Positions 29,214 through 55,887 of a DNA stretch of 64,000 nt are shown in pieces. How positions within the stretch are numbered: the stretch's first letter is position 1; each line of letters starts with the position of its first letter. Under the pieces are notes generated by a model. The model was given only the letters and a program-made list of their open reading frames with translations, was not told where the DNA came from and made no database searches. Location: the NCBI GenBank assembly GCA_964621525.1, contig CAZUMS010000007.1, positions 2,015 through 66,014 on the forward strand, read 5' to 3'. Made by a program: the position numbers and the translations under genes. The stretch is from an uncultured bacterium. GTDB lineage: Bacteria; JAGRBM01; JAHCIT01.

Positions 29214-30755
29214 CTAGTAGAATTTCCGCCGCTTGGAAGAGGATGGGATTCCGAGCTGTTCGCGATATTTGGTGAGCGCCCGGCGGGAGATACTGATTCC
29301 CTCTTCCTTCAGCCGGTTCACGATCTCCATGTCAGTCAGCGGTTCGCCAGTCTCTTCGCCGACCATCTTCTTCAGCCGTTCCTTCACCGACTCGCTGGCG
29401 ACTGAACCGCCATAGGTCGTTGAGATGCCGGAGTTGAAAAAATACTTGAGCTCGAAGATCCCCCGCGGCGTATGAACATACTTGTTGCTCGTGACGCGGG
29501 AGACGGTTGATTCGTGCATCCCGATGTCCTCGGCGACGTCGCGGAGGATCAGCGGTTTCAGGTGTGTGATGCCGTGGTCCAGGAATTCGCGCTGGAACTT
29601 CACGATCGATTCGACGACCCGGTAAATCGTCCGCTTGCGCTGGTGAACGCTCTTGATGAGCCATTCGGCATTGCGGAGCTTGTCCCGGACGTAATCCCGC
29701 GTCGCTTTGGAGCCGCTCCCCGCCTGGTTACGGAGCAGCTTAAGGTAGTGGGGGCTCACGCGAATAGCCGGCAGATCGTCGTCGTTCAGCACGATCCGGT
29801 AACCCCCCGCCGGATCCTTTTCGATATACACGTCCGGGACGATGTACTGGTTATCGGAGGTATCCTGCCAGCTTCGCGCGGGCTCGGGCTCGAGAGTCTT
29901 CAGATAGTTAAGTGCCTCGATGATTTTCTCGGGCGTCTCCTTGAGCCGGCGGGCCAGGGGTTTCACGTTCCGTCCGTCCACGAGATCAAGATGCTTGTCG
30001 ACGATTTCCCAGGACAGGGAACCATCAAACCCCAGCACCTCGAGCTGCGCCAGCATGCATTCGCGGAGGCTCCGCGAACAGATACCCGGAGGATCGAGGA
30101 GCCTGAGCTTGCCGATGACCGATTCTACCTCGGCTGCAACGGCCCCAGTTGCTTCGGCAATCTCCTCGCTGGTGATGGGCCTCGACTCCAGCCGGCTGCC
30201 ATCCACGCTCGTGGTTTCGGCAAGGTAGCCCCGCTCATCCAGGTTCTCGATGCAGTAGGCGGCGATCAGCCGTTCCTTCTCGTCAAAGTCCCCCATCTTG
30301 ATCTGCCAGAGGAGGTGCTCCGAGAGGGTTTCCGGCCGGGAGATCGATGACTGGATAAACTCCCGGGTCTCGTCGTCCATGCCATCGGAGGAAACGTTCG
30401 GGTGGGAACGTTCAAGATTGTAGGATTCGAGGTAGCTGTCCCAGTCGAACTCGCCGACCCCCTCCCCCTCCTGACCGGTAAGCTCTTTGCCAGGGGTTTC
30501 TGGAACGTCCACAACGGCAGGAGCCTCGACAGCGTCCTCCGGAAGAGGCCGCTCCTCCATCTGCTCAAGCATCGGGTTTTCGAGGAGTTGTTCCTGGATG
30601 TGCTCGGCCAGCTCAAGCCGGTTCAGCTGCAGAAGCTTGATCGCCATCTGCAACTGGGGCGTCATCGTGAGTGTCTGGCGCTGCTGAAGGCCAACACTCA
30701 TCTGCTGTCGGGGGCCGATCGACATTTCCCAAGTAATTCCAGCTACTTGAGACAC
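29214..30755 (-). CDS. rpoN: RNA polymerase sigma-54 factor
   Basis: N-terminal Gln/Leu-rich region I, core-binding domain, C-terminal RpoN box (ARRTVTKYRE-like RRALTKYREQLGI). Confidence 0.95.
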   Translation of the reverse strand: MSQVAGITWEMSIGPRQQMSVGLQQRQTLTMTPQLQMAIKLLQLNRLELAEHIQEQLLENPMLEQMEERPLPEDAVEAPAVVDVPETPGKELTGQEGEGVGEFDWDSYLESYNLERSHPNVSSDGMDDETREFIQSSISRPETLSEHLLWQIKMGDFDEKERLIAAYCIENLDERGYLAETTSVDGSRLESRPITSEEIAEATGAVAAEVESVIGKLRLLDPPGICSRSLRECMLAQLEVLGFDGSLSWEIVDKHLDLVDGRNVKPLARRLKETPEKIIEALNYLKTLEPEPARSWQDTSDNQYIVPDVYIEKDPAGGYRIVLNDDDLPAIRVSPHYLKLLRNQAGSGSKATRDYVRDKLRNAEWLIKSVHQRKRTIYRVVESIVKFQREFLDHGITHLKPLILRDVAEDIGMHESTVSRVTSNKYVHTPRGIFELKYFFNSGISTTYGGSVASESVKERLKKMVGEETGEPLTDMEIVNRLKEEGISISRRALTKYREQLGIPSSSKRRKFY

Positions 30756-39493: not shown

Positions 39494-42400
39494 TCAGGGT
39501 TGTCCGTAGTTCTTGTTGGAATGAACCGCCGTCGGCGGGTCGAACTTCAGCGGGGCATCTTGGATATCGGCTGCGGTAACGTATCGCTGGATTGACGAGT
39601 TCGCCGCCCCAGGAACAACCTGTGTAATTTCTCCGATACCAGGATCATAAGGGAGCCGGGTCGCCAGCGTATCACAGGGCCCTTCCGAGCAACGCTCCTT
39701 AATCGTAAAGCGCGTGCGGATCACTTCACGTGAACCCGGGCTTCCCGCCGGGAATATATAGGCATTGGAACCCGTCGACTGAAGGATTCGCACTCGATCA
39801 CTACCGGACTGCACAATCAAGTTATCCAAGAGTACGCCGAGTGGAGCCAGAAAGTCCTGGCCCGTGGGCGAAGCCGGATCGGTGGCGCTGTAAATTAGAT
39901 GGCCGTCGTTGAATTCAAAGACCAGCGTGAAACCGGCGAAATCCACCTGGCTCGAACCGGAAGTCCGGGTCATGGGGAACTGGTAGTTCACCTCGCGGCG
40001 CACGCTCTTCACGTTCACCGAGCCGCTCGTCTGACAAAGCGGCTGCTTGGCCACCGGGCAACCGTTCAGGGATGCAGTGACTGTGGTCGTCGCCGAGGAC
40101 GACGGCGCCAGCGCAGGATTACCGTCCGAGACGACGCAGGCCCGTCCCTGGAAGGTTGAGCCCACAAGGTCGGTGGCAACCGGCCCGCTCACCAGCGTGG
40201 TCTGGCAGGCGAACAGGGGATTGGCGCTCGGATTACCGCCGTTGTGACGATAGAGACTGCCGGTCGCACCCGAAAGGCTGAAATCGATGGGTGAGGTGGA
40301 ACCGGTATTGATATTGCCGCCGTTCAGCTTCTGGACCTTCACCACCGCCACCCGCGAGAAGAAACCGAGGTTACGGTAATCGGTATTCGCGCCGGCCGAA
40401 GTAATGCCGTATTCGGTGGCGAATGCCGCATTCGTTGCCGCGTGACGGGTGTAGATCGGGTCCGATGTCGGCACGCCGGAATTCAGGACTTCCGGATTCA
40501 CAAACTCGATTGTCACCCGGCCGGGCAGTTCGCCGTCCGGGGCAAGGTTAAATGTCACTTCGGACTGGACCAGCGTCACAGGATCGAGCTGCGGGCTTCC
40601 GGAGGTGGTCTCCTGCAGGCGCACGATCATCGCACCGGTCTGCGAAGCCGCACGGCTCGAGCTCCGGGCACGGACGTAAACAGCGGCAATACCGTCGACG
40701 ATGGGTTCGGTCACGTTGGCAATCGAGAAGTTGGTCGTTGCCAGACTGGGCGGACTACCCGTCGAATTGAAGATCGGGTTCATTCCCGACGTGACCACCG
40801 ACCCCTTGCCGAACTGAAGTTCGACGCCGTTGGATTCGCCGGAATCGCCATCGGCATCCGTTTCAACACCGTCCGCCGAACCGGCCGGATCGTCCACCGT
40901 TCCCGAAGAACGTCCCTTATCGATGAACCGGAGTGTGTAACCGGCATCGTTCGGCACCTGATAGGTAATCTCCGGATTCCCGCCGCCCGGGCACATGATC
41001 TGCCCGTCGACTGCCTGGCCGAAGTAAAGCTGACCGAAGGTCCGGACGCTGCACTCGTAATACATGCAGTCGCCGCCGTTCGGGAACGAACCCGATGCCC
41101 GGTTGTTGTTCGCCTCGATGGTCCGGCTGCTGCTGTTCTGGAGGCAGGCGGCAGGACTCGCAAAGGCCGGGACCTTGCGAGTGCAGGTCACTGCCACCGG
41201 CGACAAACAGCTGGGATTTACAACGACCGACTGGCTGTCCGACGGCAGGCCCACTGTCGAGGCGGACACCGGCGTTACCGACATGTTGATCCGGTAGGGA
41301 TTCGCCGGCGACGTGGCAACGAGCGGCGGCATCAGGAAGGCAAAACCGGTTTCGTTGTCGTCGAGATCGAGCGGCATCCAGCCTGCGGCGACCTCGTTCG
41401 TAATCGATAGATTGTCCTGACCGGCCGTCTGGACCGATGAGTTGTGATAAGCGCCCGAACCCCGGACTACATAGGGAGGCTGCGTCTGTTGCCCGGTATA
41501 CGTCATGCTGACGGCAACCTGTGTATCCTGGAACGTCGCATCTTCCTTGAGCTGGAAACAGTCGTCGTACGCGCCGAGATCGTTGACCGACCGGCAGGTG
41601 GACGGAAGGAGCTGAAGACGGAGCGGGATACGTGGAATATTGGTAATCCCTTCGCCGATCCGGTTGGAACAGATGTCTGCGGGAGTGCCGCGGAAAATGC
41701 CGAAGTCTCCACAGCGGGTATTCACCTCCGTCGAACAGGCCGACGAGTTGAATGCTCCACCCTCTGCAAAGCACTGGGGGGCATAGAGAATCGGCTTTTC
41801 CGGACACTGGGCGATCTTGAGCCCGGCGGTGTTCACGCCCGGCGTCACCGTACAACCACCAAGCGGCGTACTCGCGGCGGTCGGGTCCACCCACTTCACA
41901 ATGAAGGGGAGTGCCGGGTCCGGTCGCAGACGCAGACGGTTTTCCTCGCCGGCAACGCTCTTGCCGATGAAGTTCCGGGTTCCCCAGCCGCCCGCGTCCA
42001 CCGGCGCGAGAGCGGCCTGGCTGCCATAACGGCGGGTGGCCGGCGGCGTCGCCACCACGGGGCCGGCGGTGCTGAACTTGAGCTGCGGGAAGATCTTGGT
42101 AAAGCCCGCGCCGGAACGTACCTTGACCGAATTCCGCGTGACGCGGAGGAATACCGAGTTCACGCACGAATCGGCTGTACCAGAATCGCCGCAGGAAACC
42201 AGAATGCTGGGCGTCTTGGCGCCGTTGGCCGTCGAGCTGAAACCGCAATCGCTGGCGTTCAGAACGATCGAACTGTCGTTCGGATCAAGCGCGTTTTCGC
42301 AACTCACCTGGATCTGTGTGCCTTCCCGGAGGCAAACGACATTGCCGACACCGGGTGCATAAGCGTTGCAAGGCGCGTTCTGGGCATCTTCGTCGGCCGA

Positions 42401-43492
42401 GATGATGCGGATGTCGATGCGGAACTCGTCGGCCCGGCTCTGGCTGAGACCCACCCAGCCGTCAAGACCGCCGCCCGCGGGCGTTTCCGTCGGCAGGTTC
42501 GACAGTTCGGGGATATTCACCGGATTCGGCAGGAGGGCGTTCAGACGGGAAACAACACCCCAGTCCACACGGACCGGCGCGCCGACGTCCTCGAACACCG
42601 TCACCTCTTCATCGTCGAAAATCGCTCCGTTCCCCGAGAGTGCCGCCCGGACGGTAAGGGTTCCCCCGTCGGGATAGAGAGTCGTCGTGGTAAATGTGAC
42701 GCTTGCCGTGCCGTCAGCATCCAGCGTGACCGGAGTGGACGGAGTGAAGATGCCGAGCGGATCGGTCGAGGTGAAAATCAGCTGATAGGCTGCCGCCGGA
42801 GTCCCGGTAATCACATCGCCGTCCTGATTACGGAGCTGCGCCTTCACGGTTGTAGATCCGCCCGTCACGGTCAGCAGAAAGTCGTTGGCTTCGAAAATCT
42901 CGACCTCAGTGGGAATCGTCGGGTCGGGCTCGAAGACCACGTTGTTGATGTTCTGGATCAGCGTGGTGAGGTTCGGATTCCCCGAATCGATGTGCGATAC
43001 AGATACGCTGTAGTTACCGCTTTCAGTGGCGCGCACATAGAACGTCAGCGCCGCGCCGTCCGGAACTGCCGAGACCGTCACGGACTGGTAATGAACCGAG
43101 TCTGCCGCCGAATCGAGATGAATCCGGGCGCCCTCGGGCGCCGTCACGACCAGCCCGACCGGGGCCAGCGTCCCGGCCGCCTCGCCGGTGGCAGTGATCG
43201 ATGCCTGGATACGGTACTGCTCGACACCGTTGGCGATGCAGACCGTCGCGCCCGTCCCGGTGCAGCCAATTGCCGTCCGGGTTACGGACATGGAATATTC
43301 GACGTCGGTGGGAACCTCGACCGTGCGTGTTCCGCCACCACCACCGCCGCCGCCGCTACTGCCGCCGCCGCCACAACCCGCGCCGACGAGAACAACCGTC
43401 ATGAGCAGAACCCCCCAGCGCCAGCCGGAGAAAAACCGCTCTACAGAATTCCATTCAGTCATTGTTTTCCGAAAATACATCGCACTCTCCAC
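39494..43492 (-). CDS. Large (1332 aa) predicted surface lipoprotein of unknown function, Gly-linker then Cys-rich and Thr/Ser-rich regions
   Basis: Lipobox LVGAGC followed by GGGGSSGGGGGGGG linker; 4-kb uninterrupted ORF; ends 24 nt before the 2289-aa gene (same strand), suggesting an operon. Confidence 0.8.
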   Translation of the reverse strand: MESAMYFRKTMTEWNSVERFFSGWRWGVLLMTVVLVGAGCGGGGSSGGGGGGGGTRTVEVPTDVEYSMSVTRTAIGCTGTGATVCIANGVEQYRIQASITATGEAAGTLAPVGLVVTAPEGARIHLDSAADSVHYQSVTVSAVPDGAALTFYVRATESGNYSVSVSHIDSGNPNLTTLIQNINNVVFEPDPTIPTEVEIFEANDFLLTVTGGSTTVKAQLRNQDGDVITGTPAAAYQLIFTSTDPLGIFTPSTPVTLDADGTASVTFTTTTLYPDGGTLTVRAALSGNGAIFDDEEVTVFEDVGAPVRVDWGVVSRLNALLPNPVNIPELSNLPTETPAGGGLDGWVGLSQSRADEFRIDIRIISADEDAQNAPCNAYAPGVGNVVCLREGTQIQVSCENALDPNDSSIVLNASDCGFSSTANGAKTPSILVSCGDSGTADSCVNSVFLRVTRNSVKVRSGAGFTKIFPQLKFSTAGPVVATPPATRRYGSQAALAPVDAGGWGTRNFIGKSVAGEENRLRLRPDPALPFIVKWVDPTAASTPLGGCTVTPGVNTAGLKIAQCPEKPILYAPQCFAEGGAFNSSACSTEVNTRCGDFGIFRGTPADICSNRIGEGITNIPRIPLRLQLLPSTCRSVNDLGAYDDCFQLKEDATFQDTQVAVSMTYTGQQTQPPYVVRGSGAYHNSSVQTAGQDNLSITNEVAAGWMPLDLDDNETGFAFLMPPLVATSPANPYRINMSVTPVSASTVGLPSDSQSVVVNPSCLSPVAVTCTRKVPAFASPAACLQNSSSRTIEANNNRASGSFPNGGDCMYYECSVRTFGQLYFGQAVDGQIMCPGGGNPEITYQVPNDAGYTLRFIDKGRSSGTVDDPAGSADGVETDADGDSGESNGVELQFGKGSVVTSGMNPIFNSTGSPPSLATTNFSIANVTEPIVDGIAAVYVRARSSSRAASQTGAMIVRLQETTSGSPQLDPVTLVQSEVTFNLAPDGELPGRVTIEFVNPEVLNSGVPTSDPIYTRHAATNAAFATEYGITSAGANTDYRNLGFFSRVAVVKVQKLNGGNINTGSTSPIDFSLSGATGSLYRHNGGNPSANPLFACQTTLVSGPVATDLVGSTFQGRACVVSDGNPALAPSSSATTTVTASLNGCPVAKQPLCQTSGSVNVKSVRREVNYQFPMTRTSGSSQVDFAGFTLVFEFNDGHLIYSATDPASPTGQDFLAPLGVLLDNLIVQSGSDRVRILQSTGSNAYIFPAGSPGSREVIRTRFTIKERCSEGPCDTLATRLPYDPGIGEITQVVPGAANSSIQRYVTAADIQDAPLKFDPPTAVHSNKNYGQP

Positions 43493-43891: not shown

Positions 43892-46800
43892 GTGTCAGAA
43901 GAATCCAAAAGCGATCCTGGCAGTGGCCAGCTTCTACAGCTTCTGGCCGAACGGGAAGAACTGCTCGCCCGGCTGGCGCGTGAGACAGCCCGCGAACGGG
44001 CCGAATCGCTTGAGTTCGTCAACCGGTTCCGCGACACGATCGCCGAAAAGGACCGGGCTCTGGAAAAACTGGCTGCCGGGGCCTCGGCCTCGGACGCGCA
44101 ACTCCGGTCGGCGCAGGAAAGCATCAGGGAACTGACCGGCAGGCTCGATACTGCTGAAACCCGCCTCCTGGAAGAACAGCAGAAATCGGATGGCATCCGG
44201 GCATCCTTCGATTCCGAACTGAAGAACCGGGACTCGGAGATTCTGCGGCTCAGCCGTGAACTCGCCGGCGAAGCCGCCGCGAGGCAGCAGATCGAGAAGG
44301 AGTTCTCTGCTGCCCGCGACGACTGGCGCTCCAGTGAACAGCGCCTGCATCAGGAAACCGTCAATGCCCAGAGCGAACTGCGGCTTTTGCGAGAGCGCAG
44401 CGCCGCACTCACGGCTGAACGGGACGGCTTCGCCGCCCGGCTCGAAGCCGGTCAGGAACGGACCGGAGCTCTCGGCCGTGAACTCGATGAACTCCGGGAG
44501 AAGGCCCGCAGCCTCGAAAACTCGCTTGCCGGTTCCCATGCCGCCGCCGAAACGGAACGCACCCGGCTGAACGGGCAGATCGACACGCTGCACCGTGAGC
44601 GGGAGACACTCGGACAAAATGTCCAGCGGCTGGAACGCGAGACGGCACGGCTCGAGGCTCTGCTCCGTGAGGCTCACGAACGCCTTGCCGAACGCGAGCG
44701 GGGGCTCGCACAGCTTGCCCGCTCGGCAGCAGCCGAGCGTATGGAAGCGACAAGGCGGCTCGACGCCGCAGCCGCTTCGGCCCTCGAATCCGCACAGCGG
44801 ATCACCTCGCTAGAGAGCCGCCTCGAAGCGGCAGTCCAGGAGGCGAGAGTCCAGATGGCGCGGGCCGAGCGGACGGCCCTCGACCTCAAATCCGAACAGG
44901 AGGCCCGTGCCTCCGATGCAGCCCGGTTCCACGAAGAACTGAGAACGCTGGACCGCCAGATCGCCGATCTCCGCGAACACCGGGCCCGTGAACAGGAACG
45001 GCTCGTTTCGGCCGAAGCGCTCGCCGCACAGTTTCGCGAGGAGGCCGGGCGCGCCCGGAGCGAAGCCTCCCTCGAGGCCGCCCGTCAGCAGGAAACCTTG
45101 CTCGCCGAACAGGGCGAACATGCCCGCCGGATGGCCGCACTCGATTCACGTCTCGTGTCGCTGGAGGCGGAGCGCATGTCAGTCGCCTCGCGTGCAGCCG
45201 CCGCCGAAACGGAGGCCGAAGGGCTCCGCCGGCAGCTCGCCGGACTTCAGGACGTGTTCCAGCAGATCCGGAGCGACAGCGCAGCCGCGTCCGGCCAGAA
45301 CCAGCAGACGATCCAGCAGGCAATCCAGAACTGGGAAAGCGTCTCCGCCGCAGCGGGCGCCCAGAGCGGCAAGCTGGCTCAAACCGTTTCCGAGCTGGAA
45401 AGCCGCCTTTCGGAAATCGCACGCCGGCACGACGAACGGCGGGATGAGATCCTCAAGCTTGAGAACCTGCTCGCCGAACGGGAAAAAATCCTGGCCGATA
45501 TTGTCGGCGGGCAGAGCGAGGAGGTCCGCCGCTACGAAAGCCAGCTTGAGGAGGCCCGTTCGCGAATTCGCAGCCTCGAAGCGGCCGTCACAGCATCTGG
45601 CGGCAGTCTGCCGGCAGCGCTGGCGGCATCAGACAGCGCGGGCTCGATCCAGGATGAGCTCGCCCGCCTCCGGGCGGAAACGCACGGTCTCTCCAAATCG
45701 CTCGATGCCGCCGTCCGCAAGGCAATCGCCGAAAGCGGGCGTTCGCCGGAACTCGCCGGGCAACTGGCACGGATCGAAACGAAACTCTCGGCTTTGAACG
45801 CCGAGGACCGGGACCGGCGGTTCGCCGAACTTCTTCAGGCCGCACAGGCCGACGCCAGGCAGGTTCAGGAGCAGGTGCGAACGGAGCTGCGCAACCTGCT
45901 CCAGAAGATTTCCGGAAGCCCTCAGGGCCCGAAGGACCCGCTCCGCCTCGATCCGGCGGATCTGAAACGTATCCAGACGGATATCGATCAGCGCCTGACC
46001 CGCAGCGAACGGCAGGTAAACGATCTTGCCGCAGCTTTCGAGAACTTCATCCGGCAGCCGCAGACGACGCCGAATTCCGGCGCGCTGGCAAAAACCATCG
46101 AGGCGGTCCGGACGGAAACCCGTGCTTCGACGGAACTCCTCCGGCGCGAAATCGCGGCCATCGCCGCCCAGACGCCGGGGACGGCAGCGGCCAAAACCGC
46201 CGATCTCAAGCTCGCCACCCAGCTCGCCGCCCTCGAAAAGCGGTTACCGCTGCCGGGCACGCGGATGGCCGGAACGGACCGGGCGATAGCCGCCACCATC
46301 GCCGCCGCCGGGTTCCTGCTGATCGTCTTCGGTCTTGCGGGCGTCGCCTGGCGGCAGTGGAGGCTCGAAAACCGTCTTCTTACCTCTTATCAACCAGAAC
46401 TCTTCTCGGGCAGGTCCGCCGCTTCGGCGCTGGAAGCGCCGGAACTCGATACTCCCCTGCCCTACGAAACGGATGGAGATCAGGCAGAAATTTCGGGGCG
46501 GGCCTCACAGGCCCAGGGAGTCGTCATGCACATCGATGGCGTGTTTTTCGCAGCCGTCCCTGTGCGGGGAGGAAAATTCCTCGTGGACCGGATCCCGCTC
46601 GAACCCGGCAGCCACCGGGTCGAACTCTGGGCGTTTACGCCCGGGCAGGGGTTCTCGCCGCCCGTATCCGGAGATTTCGTCCGCAGGCAGTCGGCCGAAG
46701 CCGCACGGATTACCGAGCCGCCCCGGACAGTCCTGACCGGCCTGAACGTGGAACGCGGCCCCACCGACCGCCGCGAGATCGGCCTTACGTTCGATGGCGA

Positions 46801-47452
46801 CGGCGCGGCCGGTGCCGAAGTCGTCATGGACACCCTTAGGCAGAAGCGAATCCAGACGACAGTGTTCCTCACCGGTAAATTTATCGACGAGAACCCAGCG
46901 CTCGTACGCCGCATCGTCCAGGACGGCCATGAGGTCGGCAACCACACGGACACGCACCCGCACCTCACCACCTTCAATGAGAACAACCGCCACGACACCC
47001 GGCCTGAAGTGAACAAGGCGTGGTTTCAGGACGAACTGGTGCGGACATCGGCGAAATTCGAAGAGGTGACGGGGAAACCCATGTCGCACATCTGGCGGGC
47101 GCCCTACGGCGAGGTGAACGCCGAAATCCTCCGCTGGGCGCACGAACTGGGCTACCGGCACGTTGGCTGGACGCGGGACTATACGCGGAGCCTCACGCTC
47201 GACTCGCTGGACTGGGTCATCAACCACAGGGACAAGAACTACCAGCCCGGCGGAAAGATCGTGGACCGGCTTCTCAGCTTCGAGCGGAACTCCCGTGACG
47301 GCGTCAACGGGGGGATCGTGCTGATGCACCTCGGCACCCAGCGCCAGCTGGACGACTCCGTTGCCCTGCACCTGCCCCGGCTCATCGATGAATGGCGGGA
47401 CCGCGGCTACCGGTTCGTGAAAGTCTCGACGTGGCTTCCCGAAGAATCCTGA
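43892..47452 (+). CDS. 1186-aa fusion protein: N-terminal ~780-aa coiled coil, one TM helix, beta-sandwich-like linker domain, C-terminal NodB-type polysaccharide deacetylase (CE4)
   Basis: GTG start; Ala/Glu/Arg/Leu-rich heptad-like sequence for ~780 aa; TM AIAATIAAAGFLLIVFGLAGVAW (46283-46360); NodB motifs TFDGDG, HTDTH (H-S/T-x-x-H), RAPY (RxPY), LMH. Confidence 0.8.
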   Translation: MSEESKSDPGSGQLLQLLAEREELLARLARETARERAESLEFVNRFRDTIAEKDRALEKLAAGASASDAQLRSAQESIRELTGRLDTAETRLLEEQQKSDGIRASFDSELKNRDSEILRLSRELAGEAAARQQIEKEFSAARDDWRSSEQRLHQETVNAQSELRLLRERSAALTAERDGFAARLEAGQERTGALGRELDELREKARSLENSLAGSHAAAETERTRLNGQIDTLHRERETLGQNVQRLERETARLEALLREAHERLAERERGLAQLARSAAAERMEATRRLDAAAASALESAQRITSLESRLEAAVQEARVQMARAERTALDLKSEQEARASDAARFHEELRTLDRQIADLREHRAREQERLVSAEALAAQFREEAGRARSEASLEAARQQETLLAEQGEHARRMAALDSRLVSLEAERMSVASRAAAAETEAEGLRRQLAGLQDVFQQIRSDSAAASGQNQQTIQQAIQNWESVSAAAGAQSGKLAQTVSELESRLSEIARRHDERRDEILKLENLLAEREKILADIVGGQSEEVRRYESQLEEARSRIRSLEAAVTASGGSLPAALAASDSAGSIQDELARLRAETHGLSKSLDAAVRKAIAESGRSPELAGQLARIETKLSALNAEDRDRRFAELLQAAQADARQVQEQVRTELRNLLQKISGSPQGPKDPLRLDPADLKRIQTDIDQRLTRSERQVNDLAAAFENFIRQPQTTPNSGALAKTIEAVRTETRASTELLRREIAAIAAQTPGTAAAKTADLKLATQLAALEKRLPLPGTRMAGTDRAIAATIAAAGFLLIVFGLAGVAWRQWRLENRLLTSYQPELFSGRSAASALEAPELDTPLPYETDGDQAEISGRASQAQGVVMHIDGVFFAAVPVRGGKFLVDRIPLEPGSHRVELWAFTPGQGFSPPVSGDFVRRQSAEAARITEPPRTVLTGLNVERGPTDRREIGLTFDGDGAAGAEVVMDTLRQKRIQTTVFLTGKFIDENPALVRRIVQDGHEVGNHTDTHPHLTTFNENNRHDTRPEVNKAWFQDELVRTSAKFEEVTGKPMSHIWRAPYGEVNAEILRWAHELGYRHVGWTRDYTRSLTLDSLDWVINHRDKNYQPGGKIVDRLLSFERNSRDGVNGGIVLMHLGTQRQLDDSVALHLPRLIDEWRDRGYRFVKVSTWLPEES

Positions 47453-47481
47453 AGCGCCCGGCCTCCTCGTGGTTTGTCTAT

Positions 47482-47742
47482 ATGGTCCGCTGTTCGGACG
47501 GCACGCTCTACACAGGCGCCACCACCGACATCGGGAAGCGGCTTACGGCCCACAATACGGGCCGGGGCGCCCGGTACACCCGCAGCCGCCATCCCGTTAC
47601 CCTCGCCTACCTTGAAGAAGTCCAGGACCGGTCCAGCGCATTGCGACGCGAAGCAGCGATTAAACGTTTTGACAAGCCCGCCAAGGAAGACCTTGCAAGC
47701 AAATTTATCTCGAACCAACGAATCTTTCTGAAGCGTTTTTAA
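47482..47742 (+). CDS. GIY-YIG nuclease superfamily small protein (UPF0213/YhbQ-like)
   Basis: VYMVRCSDGTLYTGATTDIGKRLTAHN...GARYT matches the GIY-YIG core. Start placed at ATG 47482, after the upstream gene stop; the ORF-track start at 47392 overlaps the deacetylase gene and is rejected. Confidence 0.7.
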   Translation: MVRCSDGTLYTGATTDIGKRLTAHNTGRGARYTRSRHPVTLAYLEEVQDRSSALRREAAIKRFDKPAKEDLASKFISNQRIFLKRF

Positions 47743-47852
47743 GCAACCCCCGCGAAAAACAGCAAAATTCCGGCTCCCCGCCTTCGGCGCGGGCGGCGAA
47801 TCGTCTATACTCACCGCATTCCTCCGGAGGGAGAAAGAGGCGAAAGCCCGTC

Positions 47853-48278
47853 ATGGTTAACAGCTACCAGCTTCAGCAGAGCTACTCTCAGATGAAAGAA
47901 CTGGGCCGGTTCAGCATGCCCGAAGCCCGGCTTCAGGATGTGTTCCAGACCCTGTCCCGGATTGCACCGACCTGCATGATCGACCCGGCTATCGCCAAGG
48001 GATTCGTCAACTGGCTTACCCACAACGACGAAGTGCTGAGCCCTGCCGTCATCACCGAGCTTGCCCGTGCCGAACTGGCGTTGCGCGACCTCAAGACGCT
48101 GCCCGTTCAGGTACAGGAAGGCCTCACCCTGCCCGAGCAGCTCGACCTGACCGAAAAGGAACTGATCAAGCGCGCACTCGCACTGCACCGCCGCAAGGGC
48201 GACGCCGCCCAGGCGCTCGGCATTCCGCAGAGCACGCTGTCCACAAAGCTCCGCAAGTTCGGCCTGTCTGACGACTGA
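47853..48278 (+). CDS. Small Fis-family DNA-binding protein (stand-alone Fis-type HTH)
   Basis: C-terminus LTEKELIKRALALHRRKGDAAQALGIPQSTLSTKLRKFGL closely resembles the Fis/NtrC-type HTH; 141 aa. Confidence 0.7.
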   Translation: MVNSYQLQQSYSQMKELGRFSMPEARLQDVFQTLSRIAPTCMIDPAIAKGFVNWLTHNDEVLSPAVITELARAELALRDLKTLPVQVQEGLTLPEQLDLTEKELIKRALALHRRKGDAAQALGIPQSTLSTKLRKFGLSDD

Positions 48279-48353
48279 GCCGCAAGCAGAGCCCCGCCCG
48301 GCCGGGAATGCCGGAAGTGTCCGGAACTATTTTCTTCGGGGGAGGAAAACAGG

Positions 48354-48794
48354 ATGAACGGCAGCAACGGGATCCATGAGCGGCTCCGGGAACTCAGGGA
48401 GCTTCTCGGCCTTACGGCAGGCGAGTTCGCCCGCAAGGCGGGTGTGAAGGCACGGACGATCGCCCTCTGGGAAGAGGAAATGGAAAGGCCGGGAGCCGAC
48501 GACCTCGGACGGCTTCAGAAAGCCTTCAACGTGGACCTGAACTGGCTTCTCGCCGCCGACTACCGGCCCGGGTACGCCGGTCAGGTCACGGTACGCGGCG
48601 GACGGATCGAGGATCCGCTCCTGTTCCACAATGGCAGAGAACCCCGGGAAGCGGTCCGTGTCGTCAGCCAGTATCGCTCCATGAGCAGCGATGACCGGAG
48701 CTTCGTGCACAAGGTCTTCGAAAGTATCGCCGAGATGCCGCCGGTCCTTGAAGCACCCTCGGTAAATCCAGGCGCCATGAAACGCCGGAACTGA
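48354..48794 (+). CDS. XRE-family (Cro/C1-type HTH) transcriptional regulator
   Basis: LRELRELLGLTAGEFARKAGVKARTIALWE HTH_3 pattern; RBS GGAGG 9 nt upstream of ATG. Confidence 0.7.
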   Translation: MNGSNGIHERLRELRELLGLTAGEFARKAGVKARTIALWEEEMERPGADDLGRLQKAFNVDLNWLLAADYRPGYAGQVTVRGGRIEDPLLFHNGREPREAVRVVSQYRSMSSDDRSFVHKVFESIAEMPPVLEAPSVNPGAMKRRN

Positions 48795-48809
48795 AAACTG
48801 CCTGCCGGA

Positions 48810-50528
48810 TCAGACCGGCAGATCGACACCTTTTGCGAGAAGCGCGCGGCGCTCCAGCATGGATCGCAGTGCTTCAAACCGGCCACGCCAGTCCTGCTGG
48901 CAGAGCCGCGTCCGTTCTTCCGGGGAGAGTGAAACCCGGATACCATACAGATGTTCCAGCTCAAGAAGCATTTCGTCGATCAGGATCGAGACACTGTCGG
49001 ATCTGAGCGGCACGCCGGACAGCCGGACCACCGGAATCTGGACACCGCCGAACTGGTCGGAGCCGAACAGGCCGCCAGGACCGAACCGCTCCTTGGGCAG
49101 CGGACTCCAGACCACAACTTTGGCGCCATCCTGAAGCAATGCCCCGAGCGCGAATTCGAACTTGGGCCGCGCAACCGGCGAGGAAGCGTCGATCCAGAGC
49201 AGTGCACGCTCGGGCTCCGTCACGGCTCCGAGCAGCGCTCTCGCCGCCCGCTGCTCGTCCTCCTCGCGCGCGGGATAGACGGCCTCATGGAGTTTCGTCC
49301 GGCCAGATGCCGCCAGCAGCGCATGGGCGACAAAACCAGGATGCTCACCTTCCAGCAGAATGACCCCGGCTCCGTTCCGGATCGCTCCGAAGACGGCCTG
49401 TGAGACCGTGAGCACCTCGGGGGCAGCCGAAGGCCAGAGCAGTTCGGGCGAACCGGAAATGCGGCTCTCGTTGCTCCAGCCGGTGAGCCGGATTCGGCTC
49501 TCCGGGTTGAGGACCGCCTGTCCCGGCCGGAGCCGGCGCAGCAGGCCGTCCAGCCGAACCATGTCCTTTCGGCCGTACAGCTTCGATCTCGCCTCGGGCG
49601 CCAGCCGGATCGCCGGCACGCCCCCGCCTGGTCCTTCGAACACGAGGCCCACCGGACTCTCCATCATGCCGGACAGCCGCTCAACGAGTGCCTCCACCGA
49701 CGGAAGTTCGGCCACCATTTTTTCCAGCCGGGCAAGTTCCCCGAGGAACCGCGACCGTTCGTTCGGCCACAGATTGCCTATCGAGCCGAAGAGGTCGGGG
49801 AGCGCATCCGAAATCACGATCCGCGTGTAGACCGTGACCGGCACCATCATCAGCCCCGGACCGACGAAATAAAGATGATTGTCATCGAACAGGACCGGCA
49901 GCACCTGATTGGTCATCATGACCACCGCAAAGGTTCCGAAGAACGTCGCCGCCGCGATCAGGATGCGGTTGCGGTTGTTCCAGCGGATCCGAAGCCAGTT
50001 GCGGTGGATCCACCAGATCTCGAACCCGAACAGTCCGAAATGGAAAAGCGAGGGGAGCATCATCAACGGGCCATAGTGCCAGACCGGCTGCCCGTGCTCG
50101 ATCGTCACCGATTCGATCGTGAGCGGCGTCAGAACCGCCGGCAGGTGTGTGGCGATCCCGAGCACGAGCACCGGCACAGCCAGTCTGGGGGACGGAGGCT
50201 CGAGTGTGGCGAAAGCCAGGAGGAGAAAGAACCCCGCAGGATGACCGACGGCCGGGCCCACGAAAGCGAGGCGTCCGGCGATGAGCAGTGCCTCCTCCGA
50301 ACCGGCCAGCCAAATGCCTGCATAGGCGAATATCCAGGCGGCAATACTGAGACTCAGTACAAATGCCCAGTACCCTGACGAAGGAATCAGGCTCCGCTTC
50401 CAGGCCACGCAGCCCGCCGTGATCGCATAGATACCGAACAGAGCCAGAAGCATGATGCTAACCAGTACAGTAGCCTTCCCGGAAGAAATAGCTTCCGTGC
50501 TTCGAAAATACCTGACTCCAGTATACAA
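48810..50528 (-). CDS. 7TM receptor (7TMR-DISM-like) fused to a degenerate sigma-54-activator AAA+ domain; no DNA-binding domain
   Basis: Seven predicted TM helices in the first ~260 aa. C-terminal region aligns motif by motif to bEBP central domains (ILLEGEHPGFVAHALL vs LITGESGTGKE..ARAIH; closing ...CQQDWRGRFEALRSMLERRA vs ..YDWPGNVRELENVIERA). Walker A Lys, Walker B DE and GAFTGA are absent. Confidence 0.65.
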   Translation of the reverse strand: MYTGVRYFRSTEAISSGKATVLVSIMLLALFGIYAITAGCVAWKRSLIPSSGYWAFVLSLSIAAWIFAYAGIWLAGSEEALLIAGRLAFVGPAVGHPAGFFLLLAFATLEPPSPRLAVPVLVLGIATHLPAVLTPLTIESVTIEHGQPVWHYGPLMMLPSLFHFGLFGFEIWWIHRNWLRIRWNNRNRILIAAATFFGTFAVVMMTNQVLPVLFDDNHLYFVGPGLMMVPVTVYTRIVISDALPDLFGSIGNLWPNERSRFLGELARLEKMVAELPSVEALVERLSGMMESPVGLVFEGPGGGVPAIRLAPEARSKLYGRKDMVRLDGLLRRLRPGQAVLNPESRIRLTGWSNESRISGSPELLWPSAAPEVLTVSQAVFGAIRNGAGVILLEGEHPGFVAHALLAASGRTKLHEAVYPAREEDEQRAARALLGAVTEPERALLWIDASSPVARPKFEFALGALLQDGAKVVVWSPLPKERFGPGGLFGSDQFGGVQIPVVRLSGVPLRSDSVSILIDEMLLELEHLYGIRVSLSPEERTRLCQQDWRGRFEALRSMLERRALLAKGVDLPV

Positions 50529-50669
50529 TCACTACGGAAGGTATAAACAGCTTTACCCACTAAAGTCGATCCAGCTGGTAACCACCGGCTGAATTTGCAT
50601 CAAGCTACCCTCCAAATGAGGTTTTTCCGGATACACTATTCAGAAGTCCGGGAAAGGTGACCGGTTTCA

Positions 50670-51797
50670 TTGTCCGAGCCTCTCTACATTGTCGGACAGA
50701 ATGATTCGCTGATCCTGACGATCAGCGAGTGGGCATGCCGCCATGGGCTCGATGCCACCCGCAAGGAATCCGGGCGGATCCAGCCGCCGGGACGCCTGGT
50801 CTGGATCGCGGAGCGTTACGCCTCAGAGATTCCCCGGGAGTTGCTGCCCCTGATTGCCAGCTTCCCGAGCCTCGCCTGCCTGCCTCACGATGCCGAAGCC
50901 CTTGCCCGTAAGTGCATCGATACCGGTTTCGCTGAGCAGGTGTTCATCCCGACCTCCGAACGCGTTCTTTGCTCTAAACTGGAATTGCTTATCGATAATA
51001 CGAAATCCACGGACGCCGGCGGATACACCGGCCACGGCACCATGATGCTTGCTTCCCTTGCGGCTTCGCTGGCAGGACGCCGCACGCTGGAACTCGCCCG
51101 TCAGTCGGCCCTGCTCCCTGCTCCTGTCCTGCTTGCCGGTGAAGAGGGCGTGGAGTTCGAACCACTCGCACGGGCCGTCCATGCTGCCGGGCTGCGTTCG
51201 GTTGGACCGTTTGTGAGAGTCGATGCCTCCACGACTGGCGACCGGATGATGTCCGAACGGATCCCCGAAGCCTGTGGCCAGGCAGCCGGAGGGACACTAT
51301 TCATTCACCGTGTGGATATGCTCGATCCCGACGCACAGAAAATCCTTTCCTTCAGGCTCTCCATGCGAAATCCCGGAGGACGGGAACCCAGCGGCTGGAA
51401 GCTGATCGCATCGTCGGTTTCCAGTCTCGATGCACTCGCGCGGAGCGGGAACTACCTTCGCACGCTTGCCGACCAGCTCTCTGTTTTCGTGCTTCAGATT
51501 CCGCCCGTGAGGGAGCGCCTGGACGGTTTTGCGGTACTCTGCAGCGAACTGCTCCGGGAACTTGCCGCGCAGCTCAAGGTTCCCGAAAAGCGGCTTAGTC
51601 CCGAGGTGACGAAGCAGCTTGCCACCTGCCGATGGCCATTCAATGTCGCTGAACTGCGGGCCGTTCTGGAGAACGGAATGAGCCGTTCCCTCGGCGACGA
51701 AATCGGTGTTGAAGAGATCAGCCTGCCGGGCGAGACCAGCCCGCTGGAGCGGAAGCTGTGGCTCACACCTGACGGACAGGGCGGCAAGCCAAACTGA
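50670..51797 (+). CDS. Pseudo-receiver domain fused to a degenerate sigma-54-activator AAA+ domain; no GAFTGA and no HTH
   Basis: Central region aligns to NtrC: VLLAGEEGVEFEPLARAVHAAGLRSVGPFVRVDAS / GGTLFIHRVDMLDPDAQKILSFRL / IPPVRERLDGFAVLCSELL / RWPFNVAELRAVLEN; Walker A GEEGVEFE (Lys lost), Walker B DE lost, GAFTGA loop deleted. N-terminal ~110 aa are REC-like without the acceptor Asp. Confidence 0.7.
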   Translation: MSEPLYIVGQNDSLILTISEWACRHGLDATRKESGRIQPPGRLVWIAERYASEIPRELLPLIASFPSLACLPHDAEALARKCIDTGFAEQVFIPTSERVLCSKLELLIDNTKSTDAGGYTGHGTMMLASLAASLAGRRTLELARQSALLPAPVLLAGEEGVEFEPLARAVHAAGLRSVGPFVRVDASTTGDRMMSERIPEACGQAAGGTLFIHRVDMLDPDAQKILSFRLSMRNPGGREPSGWKLIASSVSSLDALARSGNYLRTLADQLSVFVLQIPPVRERLDGFAVLCSELLRELAAQLKVPEKRLSPEVTKQLATCRWPFNVAELRAVLENGMSRSLGDEIGVEEISLPGETSPLERKLWLTPDGQGGKPN

Positions 51798-51977
51798 TGG
51801 AACGCATCCTGCTTGTTACGTCCGAAAATGCTGCGGTTGCCCCGTCAGCAGACGCTCTTCGCCGATGCATTGCATTAAAATGGACAAATATGCTTCTACT
51901 GGCCCGCTATCTATGATACGAGGCAAACAGCCGTTTGGGACGGAATGCAAAAAACAAATCGAAGGAGCCCACTCCCA

Positions 51978-52619
51978 GTGCTGAATTTCAAACTCCCCGC
52001 TATCACCCTCTCTGCAATGCTCGTGTTCGCGGCTGGATGCGCCGACAAGGAACCGCCGAAAGAACAGGCAGGCGAAAAGGGCTCACAGGCCCCTGCCGGT
52101 GACGCCAAAGCGGAAGGCGACAAGGCCGGTGCCAAGACCGGCGACGGAGTGAAAGAATCCGACATCCCCGCCGGCAACAAGTCCGGCACCCTGAATGAAA
52201 AGGGCCAGGTGAACGAGAAGGCCGGCAAGGACAGCGCGTCCAAAGGCTCTGCCGCCTCGGCCGACTCCGAAATCGATCCCTCTTCCATTGAGGACATCTA
52301 TTTCGACTACGACCAGTCCGATCTTCGTGCGGAATCGCGCGACACCCTGAAGAAGGTTGCCGCCGTACTCAAGAAGTCAAAGGACGCGACGCTCACGATC
52401 GAAGGCCACTGCGACGCCCGCGGCACCGAAGAGTACAATCAGGCTCTCGGCCAGCGCCGTGCTGATGCCGCCCGTAGTTACCTCGTGAACCTCGGTGTCG
52501 CCCGCAAGCGGATCAGCACCGTCTCTTTCGGCGAGTCCCAGGCGAACCAGAATGCCGACGGCGAAGCCGCCTGGCAGAAGGACCGCCGCGGCGCATTCGT
52601 ATTCAAGACCGGTAACTGA
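51978..52619 (+). CDS. pal: Peptidoglycan-associated lipoprotein (OmpA-family C-terminal domain)
   Basis: Lipobox MLVFAAGC, OmpA motif FDYDQSDLR...TIEGHCDARGTEEYNQALGQRRA; GTG start 10 nt after RBS GAAGGAG. Confidence 0.85.
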   Translation: MLNFKLPAITLSAMLVFAAGCADKEPPKEQAGEKGSQAPAGDAKAEGDKAGAKTGDGVKESDIPAGNKSGTLNEKGQVNEKAGKDSASKGSAASADSEIDPSSIEDIYFDYDQSDLRAESRDTLKKVAAVLKKSKDATLTIEGHCDARGTEEYNQALGQRRADAARSYLVNLGVARKRISTVSFGESQANQNADGEAAWQKDRRGAFVFKTGN

Positions 52620-52720
52620 CCGGTTTCGGATCGCTGCACGAAGGGCGTGGCCTCGATGGCCGCGCCCTTCGCACTTTTTCCCTGCGGCCCCGCTCCGGTT
52701 CGGCTATCCTCCCGCGCGAG

Positions 52721-54891: not shown

Positions 54892-55005
54892 GGCGTAAAC
54901 ATCGTTCCTAACCTGCGGGAACAACTCGATTTATTTCCTTGAGCCTTGGCCCCGGGTGCGATATCTTGGGTTCCGGGTTTGAGGGCGGTCAGGAATTTTT
55001 CTGTC

Positions 55006-55887
55006 ATGGCCGGCGCCACTTCCCGTTTCGCACGCACCCTCCGCAAGCTGATCCAGCCCGAACAGGGCCCCCGCCCTTCCGTCAACCGGTTCGGGGGGCG
55101 CATCGTCGCCTTCACCGCACAGAAGGGCGGCGTCGGGAAGACAACGACCGCCGTGCAGCTCGCAGCCTCCCTCGCCCGCTATCACGGCAAGAAAGTTCTC
55201 CTTCTCGACCTCGATCCGCAGGGGCACGTCGCTTCGTCGATGAAGCGCCAGGTGTCGGACGGCGAAGGGTCGCTCTCGGAGTTTTTCATCAGCCGCGGCA
55301 CGACGGCGGACCTCCTGCGCCTGCGGCGTTCCACCAGCATCGGCGGGCTCGACGTGATCCCCGCCGACAGGAAACTCGCCGATGTGGAGAACGCAATCGC
55401 CGGGAAGTTCGGCAAGGAGTTTCTCCTCAAGAACGCGCTGCGCGGAATCCCGGACCCCTACGACTACATTCTCATCGACTGCCCGCCGCACATCGGCACG
55501 CTGACCGTGAATGCGCTTACGGCTGCCCACGGCCTGATCGTCCCCACCGACCTCTCGATCCTGTCTATGGAAGGCGTCCACGATCTGCTCGACACCGTGG
55601 GGCACATCTGCGAACACCTCAATCCCGACCTCGAGGTTTACGGCGTGCTGCTCACGAAGGTGGACAAGCGGAACAAGTCGCTGAACGAAACCTTAAGGAA
55701 GAACGTGGAGCAGGCGTTCGCCGAACTGCTCTTCGACGCCGAGATCTCCACCAATACCGCCATCCAGAAGGCCCAGATGCAGGGCAAGGTGATCTTCGAT
55801 CACGACCCCGCCTCCACCAGCGCCCACAACTACCGCGCTCTCGCCGCCGAATTCCTCGCCCGTGTACGGGAAGGAGAGCGGAACTGA
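55006..55887 (+). CDS. ParA/MinD-family P-loop ATPase
   Basis: Deviant Walker A IVAFTAQKGGVGKTTTA, DLDPQG, IIDCPP motifs. Start set at ATG 55006 with RBS AGGA 11 nt upstream; an Arg-rich overlapping ORF in another frame is rejected. Confidence 0.85.
   Translation: MAGATSRFARTLRKLIQPEQGPRPSVNRFGGRIVAFTAQKGGVGKTTTAVQLAASLARYHGKKVLLLDLDPQGHVASSMKRQVSDGEGSLSEFFISRGTTADLLRLRRSTSIGGLDVIPADRKLADVENAIAGKFGKEFLLKNALRGIPDPYDYILIDCPPHIGTLTVNALTAAHGLIVPTDLSILSMEGVHDLLDTVGHICEHLNPDLEVYGVLLTKVDKRNKSLNETLRKNVEQAFAELLFDAEISTNTAIQKAQMQGKVIFDHDPASTSAHNYRALAAEFLARVREGERN

Follow-up and report, generated by a model that had tools for sequence, protein, structure and literature searches.

The 64-kb stretch of contig CAZUMS010000007.1 analysed here (the window), from an uncultured bacterium, contains a divergent pair of open reading frames (ORFs), designated A and B, which encode degenerate relatives of the bacterial enhancer-binding proteins (bEBPs) that activate sigma-54-dependent transcription. 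ORF A (48810..50453, minus strand; 547 amino acids, aa) encodes a receptor with seven transmembrane (7TM) helices joined to a degenerate bEBP-type AAA+ domain, while ORF B (50670..51797, plus strand; 375 aa) encodes a pseudo-receiver followed by a dead bEBP AAA+ domain and lid, without a helix-turn-helix (HTH) domain. The ATG at 50453 is supported as the start of A by gene callers and by all homologs; reading from the first TTG (50528) would give a product of 572 aa (48810..50528, minus strand), and the ATG is favoured over this codon also because a sigma-70-like candidate promoter (50547..50520) overlaps the TTG. A first-pass annotation of this DNA had described the pair as catalytically dead bEBP paralogs, and the motif strings quoted in it (GEEGVEFE and WPFNVAELRAVLEN for B, GEHPGFV and WRGRFEALRSMLERRA for A) are all present in the translations.

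B is assigned to the NtrC-type AAA+ proteins by the Pfam thresholds: it matches Sigma54_activ_2 (E 2.1e-17, 64.1 bits, cutoff 25), Sigma54_activat, with the N-terminal part only (31.6 bits, cutoff 20.2), and AAA_lid_14 (E 4.6e-9, 36.4 bits, cutoff 27), as well as many NCBIfam bEBP models, all far below their cutoffs. Among the PDB sequences the best match is PspF (E 5e-16), with NtrX, FlrC and NtrC1 also found. In the AlphaFold2 (AF2) model of B (predicted local distance difference test, pLDDT, 86.3), an N-terminal domain with a (beta-alpha)5-like fold precedes the AAA+ core and the lid, and a Foldseek search of the PDB with this model gives the receiver and central domains of NtrC1 as the best match (E 5e-21 over 394 columns), followed by NtrX and the REC and AAA domains of LuxO.

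The AAA+ core and lid of B (residues 134-350; 51069..51719, plus strand) have lost nearly every motif on which catalysis by a bEBP depends. In the alignment with PspF, Walker A changes from GERGTGKE to GEEGVEFE (nt 51138-51161) with the loss of the catalytic Lys, and Walker B from LFLDEL to LFIHRV, leaving an HR remnant at nt 51306-51311 in place of the DE pair. The position of the GAFTGA loop is a 14-residue gap, and none of the frames of the 64-kb window contains a GAFTGA-like string. Of the two Arg fingers (YLRTLADQL in B), R168 is replaced by Gln, and R162 survives in the B of the window but not in its orthologs; in the sensor II motif WPGNIREL becomes WPFNVAEL, the Arg being replaced by Ala327 (51648-51650). 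Both A and B end shortly after the lid and neither has a Pfam match to HTH_8, the Fis-type domain that is typical, but not universal, at the C-terminus of bEBPs; an HTH_8 domain resides instead on a separate 141-aa protein (47853..48278, plus strand; Pfam E 3.7e-8).

The N-terminal domain of B (residues 1-117; 50670..51020, plus strand) has a receiver fold in residues 4-117, with helix alpha2 missing from the AF2 model, and no Pfam match to Response_reg. The alignments of its signature positions (A5 and A6) show the acidic pair DD as xN, the phospho-acceptor motif LLLD as LVW-I, the conserved Thr as Leu (CLPH) and KP as IP; the acidic pair, phospho-acceptor Asp, Thr and Lys are replaced in B, in its orthologs and in active paralogous bEBPs alike. 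The orthologs of B in two related loci (L006 and L014; comparison loci are given by L numbers) are as degenerate as the window copy, with Walker A reading TENGMQTG or GPAGMQPV and Walker B LYLDGI or LYLEDV, with NLDEL at sensor II, with the GAFTGA loop deleted and with no HTH. A deletion of 9-15 residues in the L1 loop is common to all three B proteins compared (window, L006 and L014).

The relationship of A to the bEBPs is much more distant. Taken as a single sequence, A gives one sub-threshold Pfam match, to AAA_lid_14 (17.7 bits, cutoff 27), and weak matches to FleQ. A profile built from a 12-sequence alignment of family A (alignment A1) finds 31 bEBP chains in the PDB (best E 4.7e-7) over the region from beta4 to the lid (positions 448-547), and hhalign of A1 against an alignment of B and 24 ordinary bEBPs gives a probability of 97.2% (E 4e-11, 249 columns) over the linker, the entire AAA+ core and the lid of A. 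In the AF2 model (pLDDT 80.8), seven transmembrane helices (residues 2-214) lead through a small linker domain and a disordered stretch to an alternating alpha/beta core and three lid helices; the top Foldseek matches to this model in the PDB are FlrC, ZraR, FleQ, NtrC1, PspF and NtrX, and the 7TM part is matched by G-protein-coupled receptors. On these profile and fold comparisons the C-terminal domain of A derives from the bEBP clade.

The 7TM domain of A (residues 1-214; 49812..50453, minus strand) is modelled with a pLDDT of about 90 and appears to be HisKA_7TM-like, with a beta-hairpin (113-127) between helices 4 and 5 in the AF2 model. Pfam HisKA_7TM (PF16927) matches five of the 12 family-A members (best E 2e-7); the window copy has no match at E<=0.01. 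No domain match to the HisKA/HATPase_c kinase core was found downstream of these helices, and the pseudo-AAA+ domain stands as the output domain. The two parts are connected by residues 215-340 (49434..49811, minus strand), which comprise the juxtamembrane motif LPDLFGxxGxxxPNxRSRF, the small alpha/beta linker domain and a TGW motif in the disordered stretch. This linker has no database match, and eight of its positions (L218, P219, D220, G226, R235, T324, G325 and W326) are near-invariant columns of A1.

In the pseudo-AAA+ core of A (residues 341-480; 49014..49433, minus strand) the P-loop position reads EGEHPGF (nt 49332-49352) and the Walker B position LLWIDAS, without the conserved acidic pair. 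LFxSxxF stands at the position of the Arg fingers and WRGRFEAL at sensor II, and no L1/GAFTGA hairpin is present in the model or in the hhalign alignment. According to A1 and hhalign, the P-loop, the Walker B DE and the Arg fingers are missing from every member of family A, and the loss of the nucleotide site is ancestral to the family. The lid (residues 481-547 and the stop codon; 48810..49013, minus strand) is of the bEBP type, EDVSxLIDxxL ... PEER ... WxGxxExLRxxLER, and AAA_lid_14 matches five of the 12 members (best E 5.9e-7).

Every structural claim that the first-pass annotation made from the letters is borne out by these comparisons. Both proteins align to the NtrC-type AAA+ domain, B by Pfam thresholds, including that of Sigma54_activat, and A at the level of the family through its profile, hhalign and fold; the Walker A Lys and Walker B DE are lost in the PspF alignment of B and in the A1 and hhalign comparisons of A; GAFTGA is deleted in B and its orthologs and has no counterpart in A; and neither protein carries a Fis-type HTH. 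The 7TM region assigned to one protein is found in the model of A, and the REC-like domain without a phospho-acceptor Asp in the fold and alignments of B. The alignments revealed no intact Walker or GAFTGA motif in A or B, and NtrC1 is among the top fold matches of both models. The term paralogs is appropriate in the deep sense that both proteins have bEBP-type AAA+ domains; a recent duplication giving rise to A and B is rejected by their pairwise BLASTP comparison (E=11).

Family A is a new and very rare family, and its architecture is a new derivative of a well-known one. An exhaustive HMMER scan of 1.84 billion protein representatives found 13 matches, 11 of which are clusters at E<1e-10, all of about 550-570 aa and of one shared layout except for two fragments, and a word-index search with A returned the identical protein and an ortholog of 87% identity only. 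The loci fall into two types. The window-type loci are the window, L004/L005 (A ortholog of 87% identity), L006/L013 (46%) and L014 (44%), and they keep the gene order Fis-HTH, XRE, A, divergent B, and the OmpA-like gene onwards. In the canonical loci (L008, L009/L010, L011, L012, L015, L016 and L017), the A paralogs are about 30% identical and lie in differing surroundings; every one of these loci has a gene for a protein of about 965 aa directly upstream of the A paralog, as well as a divergent bEBP gene (about 457 aa) wherever the contig reaches far enough. The association with a bEBP-like gene is seen in the window, L004/L005, L006 and L014 for the window type and in L008, L009/L010, L011, L012, L015 and L017 for the canonical type.

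The bEBPs of the canonical loci carry the unusual pseudo-receiver of B (LxIVGxNPSL ... LVW ... CLPH ... LARKALxxGFxDYLCIP), and they are intact in the remainder of the protein, with GETGxGKE, a GAFTGA, GAYTGA or GSFTGA loop, LFLDE, WPGNxRELEN and a C-terminal HTH_8. B, which is 33-37% identical to them, is thus the degenerate branch of a bEBP subfamily that is otherwise intact. Degenerate bEBPs are also seen downstream of several A paralogs: L011 7872-8540 encodes an eroded protein of 222 aa that has lost the AAA+ core, its receiver-like N-terminus being joined directly to the lid and HTH_8, L015 5376-5918 encodes a similar one (181 aa, truncated by the contig), and L008 9694-11169 encodes a full REC-AAA+-HTH protein whose GAFTGA reads GAAQGA. 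The neighbourhood of the A paralogs seems prone to bEBP degeneration.

The degenerate domains of the window pair are maintained by purifying selection. Reading frames are intact in four genomes at 44-87% identity, and the ratio of nonsynonymous to synonymous substitution rates (dN/dS; Nei-Gojobori, window against L004) is 0.117 for the whole of A, being 0.22 for the 7TM domain, 0.15 for the linker domain, 0.029 for the pseudo-AAA+ core and 0.061 for the lid, so that the dead core is the most constrained part of the protein. For B the value is 0.18 over the 75 N-terminal codons, the only ones available, and the neighbouring XRE and HTH_8 genes give 0.11 and 0.03, respectively. In the window clade identity is lower for B than for A (39% versus 46%), a faster divergence that is consistent with a relaxed constraint after the loss of catalysis.

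The two small HTH proteins of the window are also found with family A elsewhere. The XRE-family gene (48354..48794, plus strand; 146 aa; Pfam HTH_3 E 4.6e-11) is convergent with A, the two stop codons being 15 bp apart; its product has a 52% ortholog in L006 and is 36% identical to a 146-aa XRE protein of L017 whose gene, immediately downstream, overlaps the 3' end of the A paralog. The Fis-type HTH_8 protein of 141 aa has a 77% ortholog in L006, and its entire length aligns at 48% identity with a 139-aa HTH_8 protein encoded close to the canonical module of L009/L010. An HTH_3 gene follows the A paralog in L012, and an HTH_8 gene lies beside it in L016. The XRE and HTH_8 proteins are components co-conserved in both types of module.

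The gene upstream of the canonical A paralogs (L008 5066-7966, L009 5072-7966, L011 3209-6115, L012 3257-6163, L015 716-3631 and L017 4078-6969) encodes a protein without Pfam or PADLOC matches. Its profile gives a weak match to phenylacetate-CoA ligase in the C-terminal half (E 4.7e-4), and one to LuxD thioesterase in the N-terminal half that is not significant (E 0.14); the protein may be a fused hydrolase and adenylate-forming enzyme, PaaK/LuxD-like. Genes resembling those of mobile elements or defence were found in the flanks of L009 and L010, at L011 27-1067 and at L012 866-1147, comprising insertion sequence-type transposases, an RHS toxin, PIN_4, Peptidase_M78 with DUF4411, T5orf172 and Fic, and the canonical modules may lie in variable genomic islands.

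The promoters of the two module types appear to differ. The intergenic region between A and B (50454..50669) contains sigma-70-like candidate sites for both genes (50547..50520, minus strand, and 50502..50529, plus strand) and no sigma-54-type promoter, TGGCAC-N5-TTGC with up to one mismatch being absent near the pair. In the canonical loci the motif GGYHC-N5-TTGRR, whose spacing is that of the sigma-54 -24/-12 elements, is present 38-57 nt upstream of the start codon of the 965-aa protein (L008 5015, L011 3158, L015 665 and L017 4021, plus strand), with a one-mismatch version near 3207 in L012. This motif, which may be a variant of the sigma-54 promoter specific to the lineage, occurs twice in the 64-kb window, against 3.5 occurrences expected by chance, and neither copy lies close to the pair. 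These promoter data, which are suggestive only, would fit a canonical module that is active and dependent on sigma-54, and a window-type one that has escaped from its control.

Two non-coding segments adjoin the pair. The A-proximal half of the intergenic region (50470-50560) is almost identical in L004, the relative at 87%, while the B-proximal half has diverged; it holds an inverted repeat (CTTCCCGGAAG ... GGAAGAAATAGCTTCC) beside the sigma-70-like candidates and may be an operator. Between the stop codon of B and the OmpA-like gene, a block at 51868-51935 (GCATTAAA-T..AAAT-TGCTTC...CT-TGATA...GGCAAACAGC) is strongly conserved in the window, L006 and L014, where the flanking B proteins show no more than 32-34% identity to that of the window in the same alignment. 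The block has no Rfam match and no sigma-54 promoter spacing, and could be a promoter, an operator or an RNA leader for the operon of the OmpA-like lipoprotein. One sigma-54 candidate, matching at 10 of 12 positions, was noted at 51798 upstream of the OmpA-like gene and was dropped, as it is not conserved in L006 or L014. Rfam gave nothing above chance over 47300-52700.

The first-pass annotation had also pointed to rpoN, 18 kb from the pair. The position of this gene (29214..30755, minus strand) is confirmed; its proximity carries no weight, since rpoN adjoins hprK and rapZ, which is its usual neighbourhood, and since the pair itself cannot engage sigma-54. Three large ORFs lie upstream of the module: 32600-39469 (minus strand; 2289 aa); 39494-43492 (minus strand; 1332 aa), without a Pfam match and syntenic in L006; and 43892-47452 (plus strand; 1186 aa), with a C-terminal polysaccharide deacetylase domain and, by eye, a long coiled coil in the N-terminal part, also syntenic in L006. 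The start of a gene for a 116-aa protein with a GIY-YIG nuclease domain (47392-47742, plus strand) overlaps the end of the 1186-aa gene; it is found in L004, absent from L006 and without a PADLOC match. Downstream of B and of the OmpA-like gene (51945..52619), a ParA/MinD-type ATPase (AAA_31, E 2e-48) is encoded at 54946-55887 (plus strand), behind a ChaN-like haem-binding protein, and keeps its synteny in L006. FleN, the anti-activator of FleQ, is of the ParA/MinD type. PADLOC assigned no defence system, giving only generic matches to bEBP (RtcR-like) and XRE HTH models and none for A, the 965-aa protein or the GIY-YIG protein.

The explanation that we favour, with about an even chance, is that the pair is derived, by reduction and by death of the ATPase, from a rare conserved signalling module in which A senses a signal and contacts its partner; in the window form the output would pass through the small HTH proteins. 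What the analysis shows are the architectures, the lost motifs, how rare the family is, the conserved pairing of the genes and the purifying selection; the physical contact between A and B, the direction of control and the route of output are what we infer here. The core of the module would be a family-A protein, with its HisKA_7TM-like seven-helix domain, linker and AAA+/lid domain free of a nucleotide site, and a bEBP with an Asp-less receiver. Because this receiver has no phospho-acceptor Asp, a histidine kinase cannot switch the partner bEBP. In the canonical form an intact bEBP is encoded divergently from an operon consisting of the enzyme-like protein of about 965 aa, A and often an XRE or HTH_8 gene, with the sigma-54-like -24/-12 motif before the operon. 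The 7TM part of A might sense a membrane or envelope signal, its pseudo-AAA+ domain might bind the AAA+ or the pseudo-receiver domain of the partner, and A would then hold the partner at the membrane or release it, serving as an anti-activator or co-activator in place of phosphotransfer.

The window partners are predicted to bind neither ATP, sigma-54 nor DNA, and so the pair could be only an ATP-independent switch or scaffold. Its output would probably run through the XRE (146 aa) and Fis-type (141 aa) proteins at sigma-70 promoters, or by titrating an active paralog. As A has no conserved Arg finger, sequestration or control of assembly is likelier than catalytic complementation. The roles proposed for the pair from the letters alone, namely hetero-oligomerising regulators, anti-activators or signalling through the Fis-HTH and XRE neighbours, appear compatible with this comparative evidence.

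In favour of this explanation count the conserved pairing with a bEBP-like gene, the pseudo-receiver common to B and the canonical partners, the motif before the canonical operons, the small HTH proteins found in both module types, and the selection on the dead core. The correlated divergence of A and of its partner among the canonical modules (r=0.79, 10 pairs) also speaks for it, and may simply reflect species phylogeny. Several observations weigh against the explanation. A role of A as a donor of an Arg finger to the partner ATPase, as in LAP1, was considered and rejected, no conserved Arg being present there. No homolog or remnant of the 965-aa gene was found in the window by tblastn, so the presumed target of the canonical module is missing here. 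The -12 element of the putative sigma-54 promoter is TTGA or TTGG and not TTGC, and the motif was not seen in L009/L010. Finally, all carriers are uncultured metagenome-assembled genomes or metagenome contigs, and the distant member P0090 is annotated as Bdellovibrionota.

A bolder form of the same explanation is put forward tentatively, as one that we consider rather doubtful. In it, family A would represent a novel type of one-component-like transmembrane transducer for sigma-54 regulation: the 7TM receptor would use its nucleotide-free, bEBP-derived AAA+ domain to dock into the ring of a phosphorylation-independent bEBP, or to cap it, and would entirely replace the histidine kinase, as a bacterial counterpart of LAP1-Torsin. 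The locus in the window would be a further step, both of its partners having turned into pure pseudo-enzymes, with separate HTH proteins as the recipients of their signal.

Among the alternatives, the strongest is that B, dead as it is, and likewise A assemble into mixed rings with the active pseudo-receiver bEBP that a canonical paralog module supplies from elsewhere in the same genome; these rings would be poisoned or tuned, and the pair would form the inhibitory branch of one circuit. In the genome GCA_964565925.1 a window-type pair (P0089, L006) does occur alongside a canonical module (P0091, L009), and the canonical locus L017 comes from the same sequencing run as L001, a contig identical to the window. 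B shares with the active paralogs the pseudo-receiver and the overall AAA+ fold, and hetero-oligomeric bEBPs have precedents in FleQ/FleT (PMC7277832) and HrpR/HrpS (PMC3105312). The low identity of B to those paralogs, given above, counts the other way, as do a dedicated 7TM partner and HTH genes of its own, which suggest a self-contained unit. We regard a dominant-negative role as possible and, on balance, unlikely.

It is a good deal less probable that A and B are merely neighbours, the C-terminal domain of A having a function unrelated to bEBPs and the adjacency being inherited synteny. The window-type loci do have in common a long stretch of synteny that runs from the polysaccharide deacetylase gene to a flavin adenine dinucleotide (FAD) oxidase gene, so that the adjacency within that clade alone is weak evidence; however, the paralogs of about 30% identity elsewhere still adjoin a bEBP of the same pseudo-receiver subtype, and the C-terminal domain of A is itself of bEBP descent. 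More improbable still is that both genes are functionless, pseudogenised remnants of a former two-component or bEBP system. The loss of every catalytic motif and the faster divergence of B would be expected of relics, but the frames are intact, the dN/dS values for A, for its dead core and for the N-terminus of B largely refute decay, and the whole of family A has kept its full length without a P-loop across about 30% identity. An ATP-independent, non-canonical activation of sigma-54 transcription by B with the rpoN of the window is hardly credible, given that open-complex formation with sigma-54 needs ATP hydrolysis and the L1 loop, that the GAFTGA loop is deleted and ATPase residues are missing in three orthologs without an HTH, and that no sigma-54 promoter was found near the locus.

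Phosphorylation, ligand-binding domains and unrelated anti-activators are the established switches of bEBPs. If the favoured explanation of a sensing A protein that contacts its partner is true, a receptor that uses a dead version of the AAA+ domain of the activator itself would couple an envelope signal to sigma-54 transcription by another means, and would provide a clear bacterial example of pseudo-AAA+ subunits that regulate AAA+ machines. The locus in the window would represent a second step, in which the whole module has turned into pseudo-enzymes under strong purifying selection, and might serve as a natural case for the repurposing of an ATPase scaffold. The significance is limited by the extreme rarity of the family, its confinement to uncultured bacteria and the inferred nature of the mechanism.

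Among known systems, the NtrC-family bEBPs (PF00158, PF14532 and PF25601; NtrC1, PspF, FleQ and FlrC) are the reference for both proteins. B shares their layout of REC, AAA+ and lid, and its closest relatives, the partners of the A paralogs, are complete bEBPs; the C-terminal domain of A shares the fold and the lid signature. In contrast to them, A and B are without the Walker A Lys, the Walker B DE, GAFTGA, the sensor II Arg and the HTH; A has neither Arg finger and B lacks the second; and A is embedded in the membrane through seven transmembrane helices. A literature search found no description of a 7TM or membrane-anchored pseudo-bEBP.

Some GAFTGA-less regulators, VpsR, NtrX, the NtrC of Caulobacter and TyrR, keep the HTH, usually nucleotide binding and mostly a phosphorylatable receiver. 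B, unlike them, is predicted to have none of these, and VpsR and NtrX are among its best matches in fold and sequence. The four are sigma-70-acting proteins, likewise derived from bEBPs, that no longer engage sigma-54 (PMC6158489). In the hetero-oligomeric bEBP pairs, unlike A and B, each partner has GAFTGA and ATPase activity, and neither resides in the membrane. FleT, one such partner, is also without a DNA-binding domain. FleQ and FleT of Rhodobacter sphaeroides (PMC7277832) and HrpR and HrpS of Pseudomonas syringae (PMC3105312) are the products of neighbouring genes and act as one complex.

Control in trans by protein-protein contact with non-homologous anti-activators is described for bEBPs without a phosphorylatable receiver, as in PspA-PspF, FleN-FleQ, HrpV-HrpS and NifL-NifA (PMC8528422 and PMC3791423); the mode of action proposed for A would resemble that of PspA and FleN, whose targets are receiver-less or atypical bEBPs. 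LapD is a membrane receptor that signals via catalytically dead enzyme domains (PMC3032553). A differs from PspA, FleN, HrpV, NifL and LapD, none of which is an AAA+ domain of bEBP descent or joined to a 7TM module. For an A paralog acting on an active bEBP, the LAP1/LULL1 and Torsin proteins of eukaryotes offer the nearest mechanistic parallel. LAP1 supplies a strictly conserved Arg finger while A has none, the homology is limited to the AAA+ superfamily, and in the window the partner is dead too. A nevertheless shares with LAP1 the membrane anchoring, the AAA+-like fold and the missing nucleotide-binding motifs, and LAP1 forms mixed rings with Torsin and regulates it (PMC4358337).

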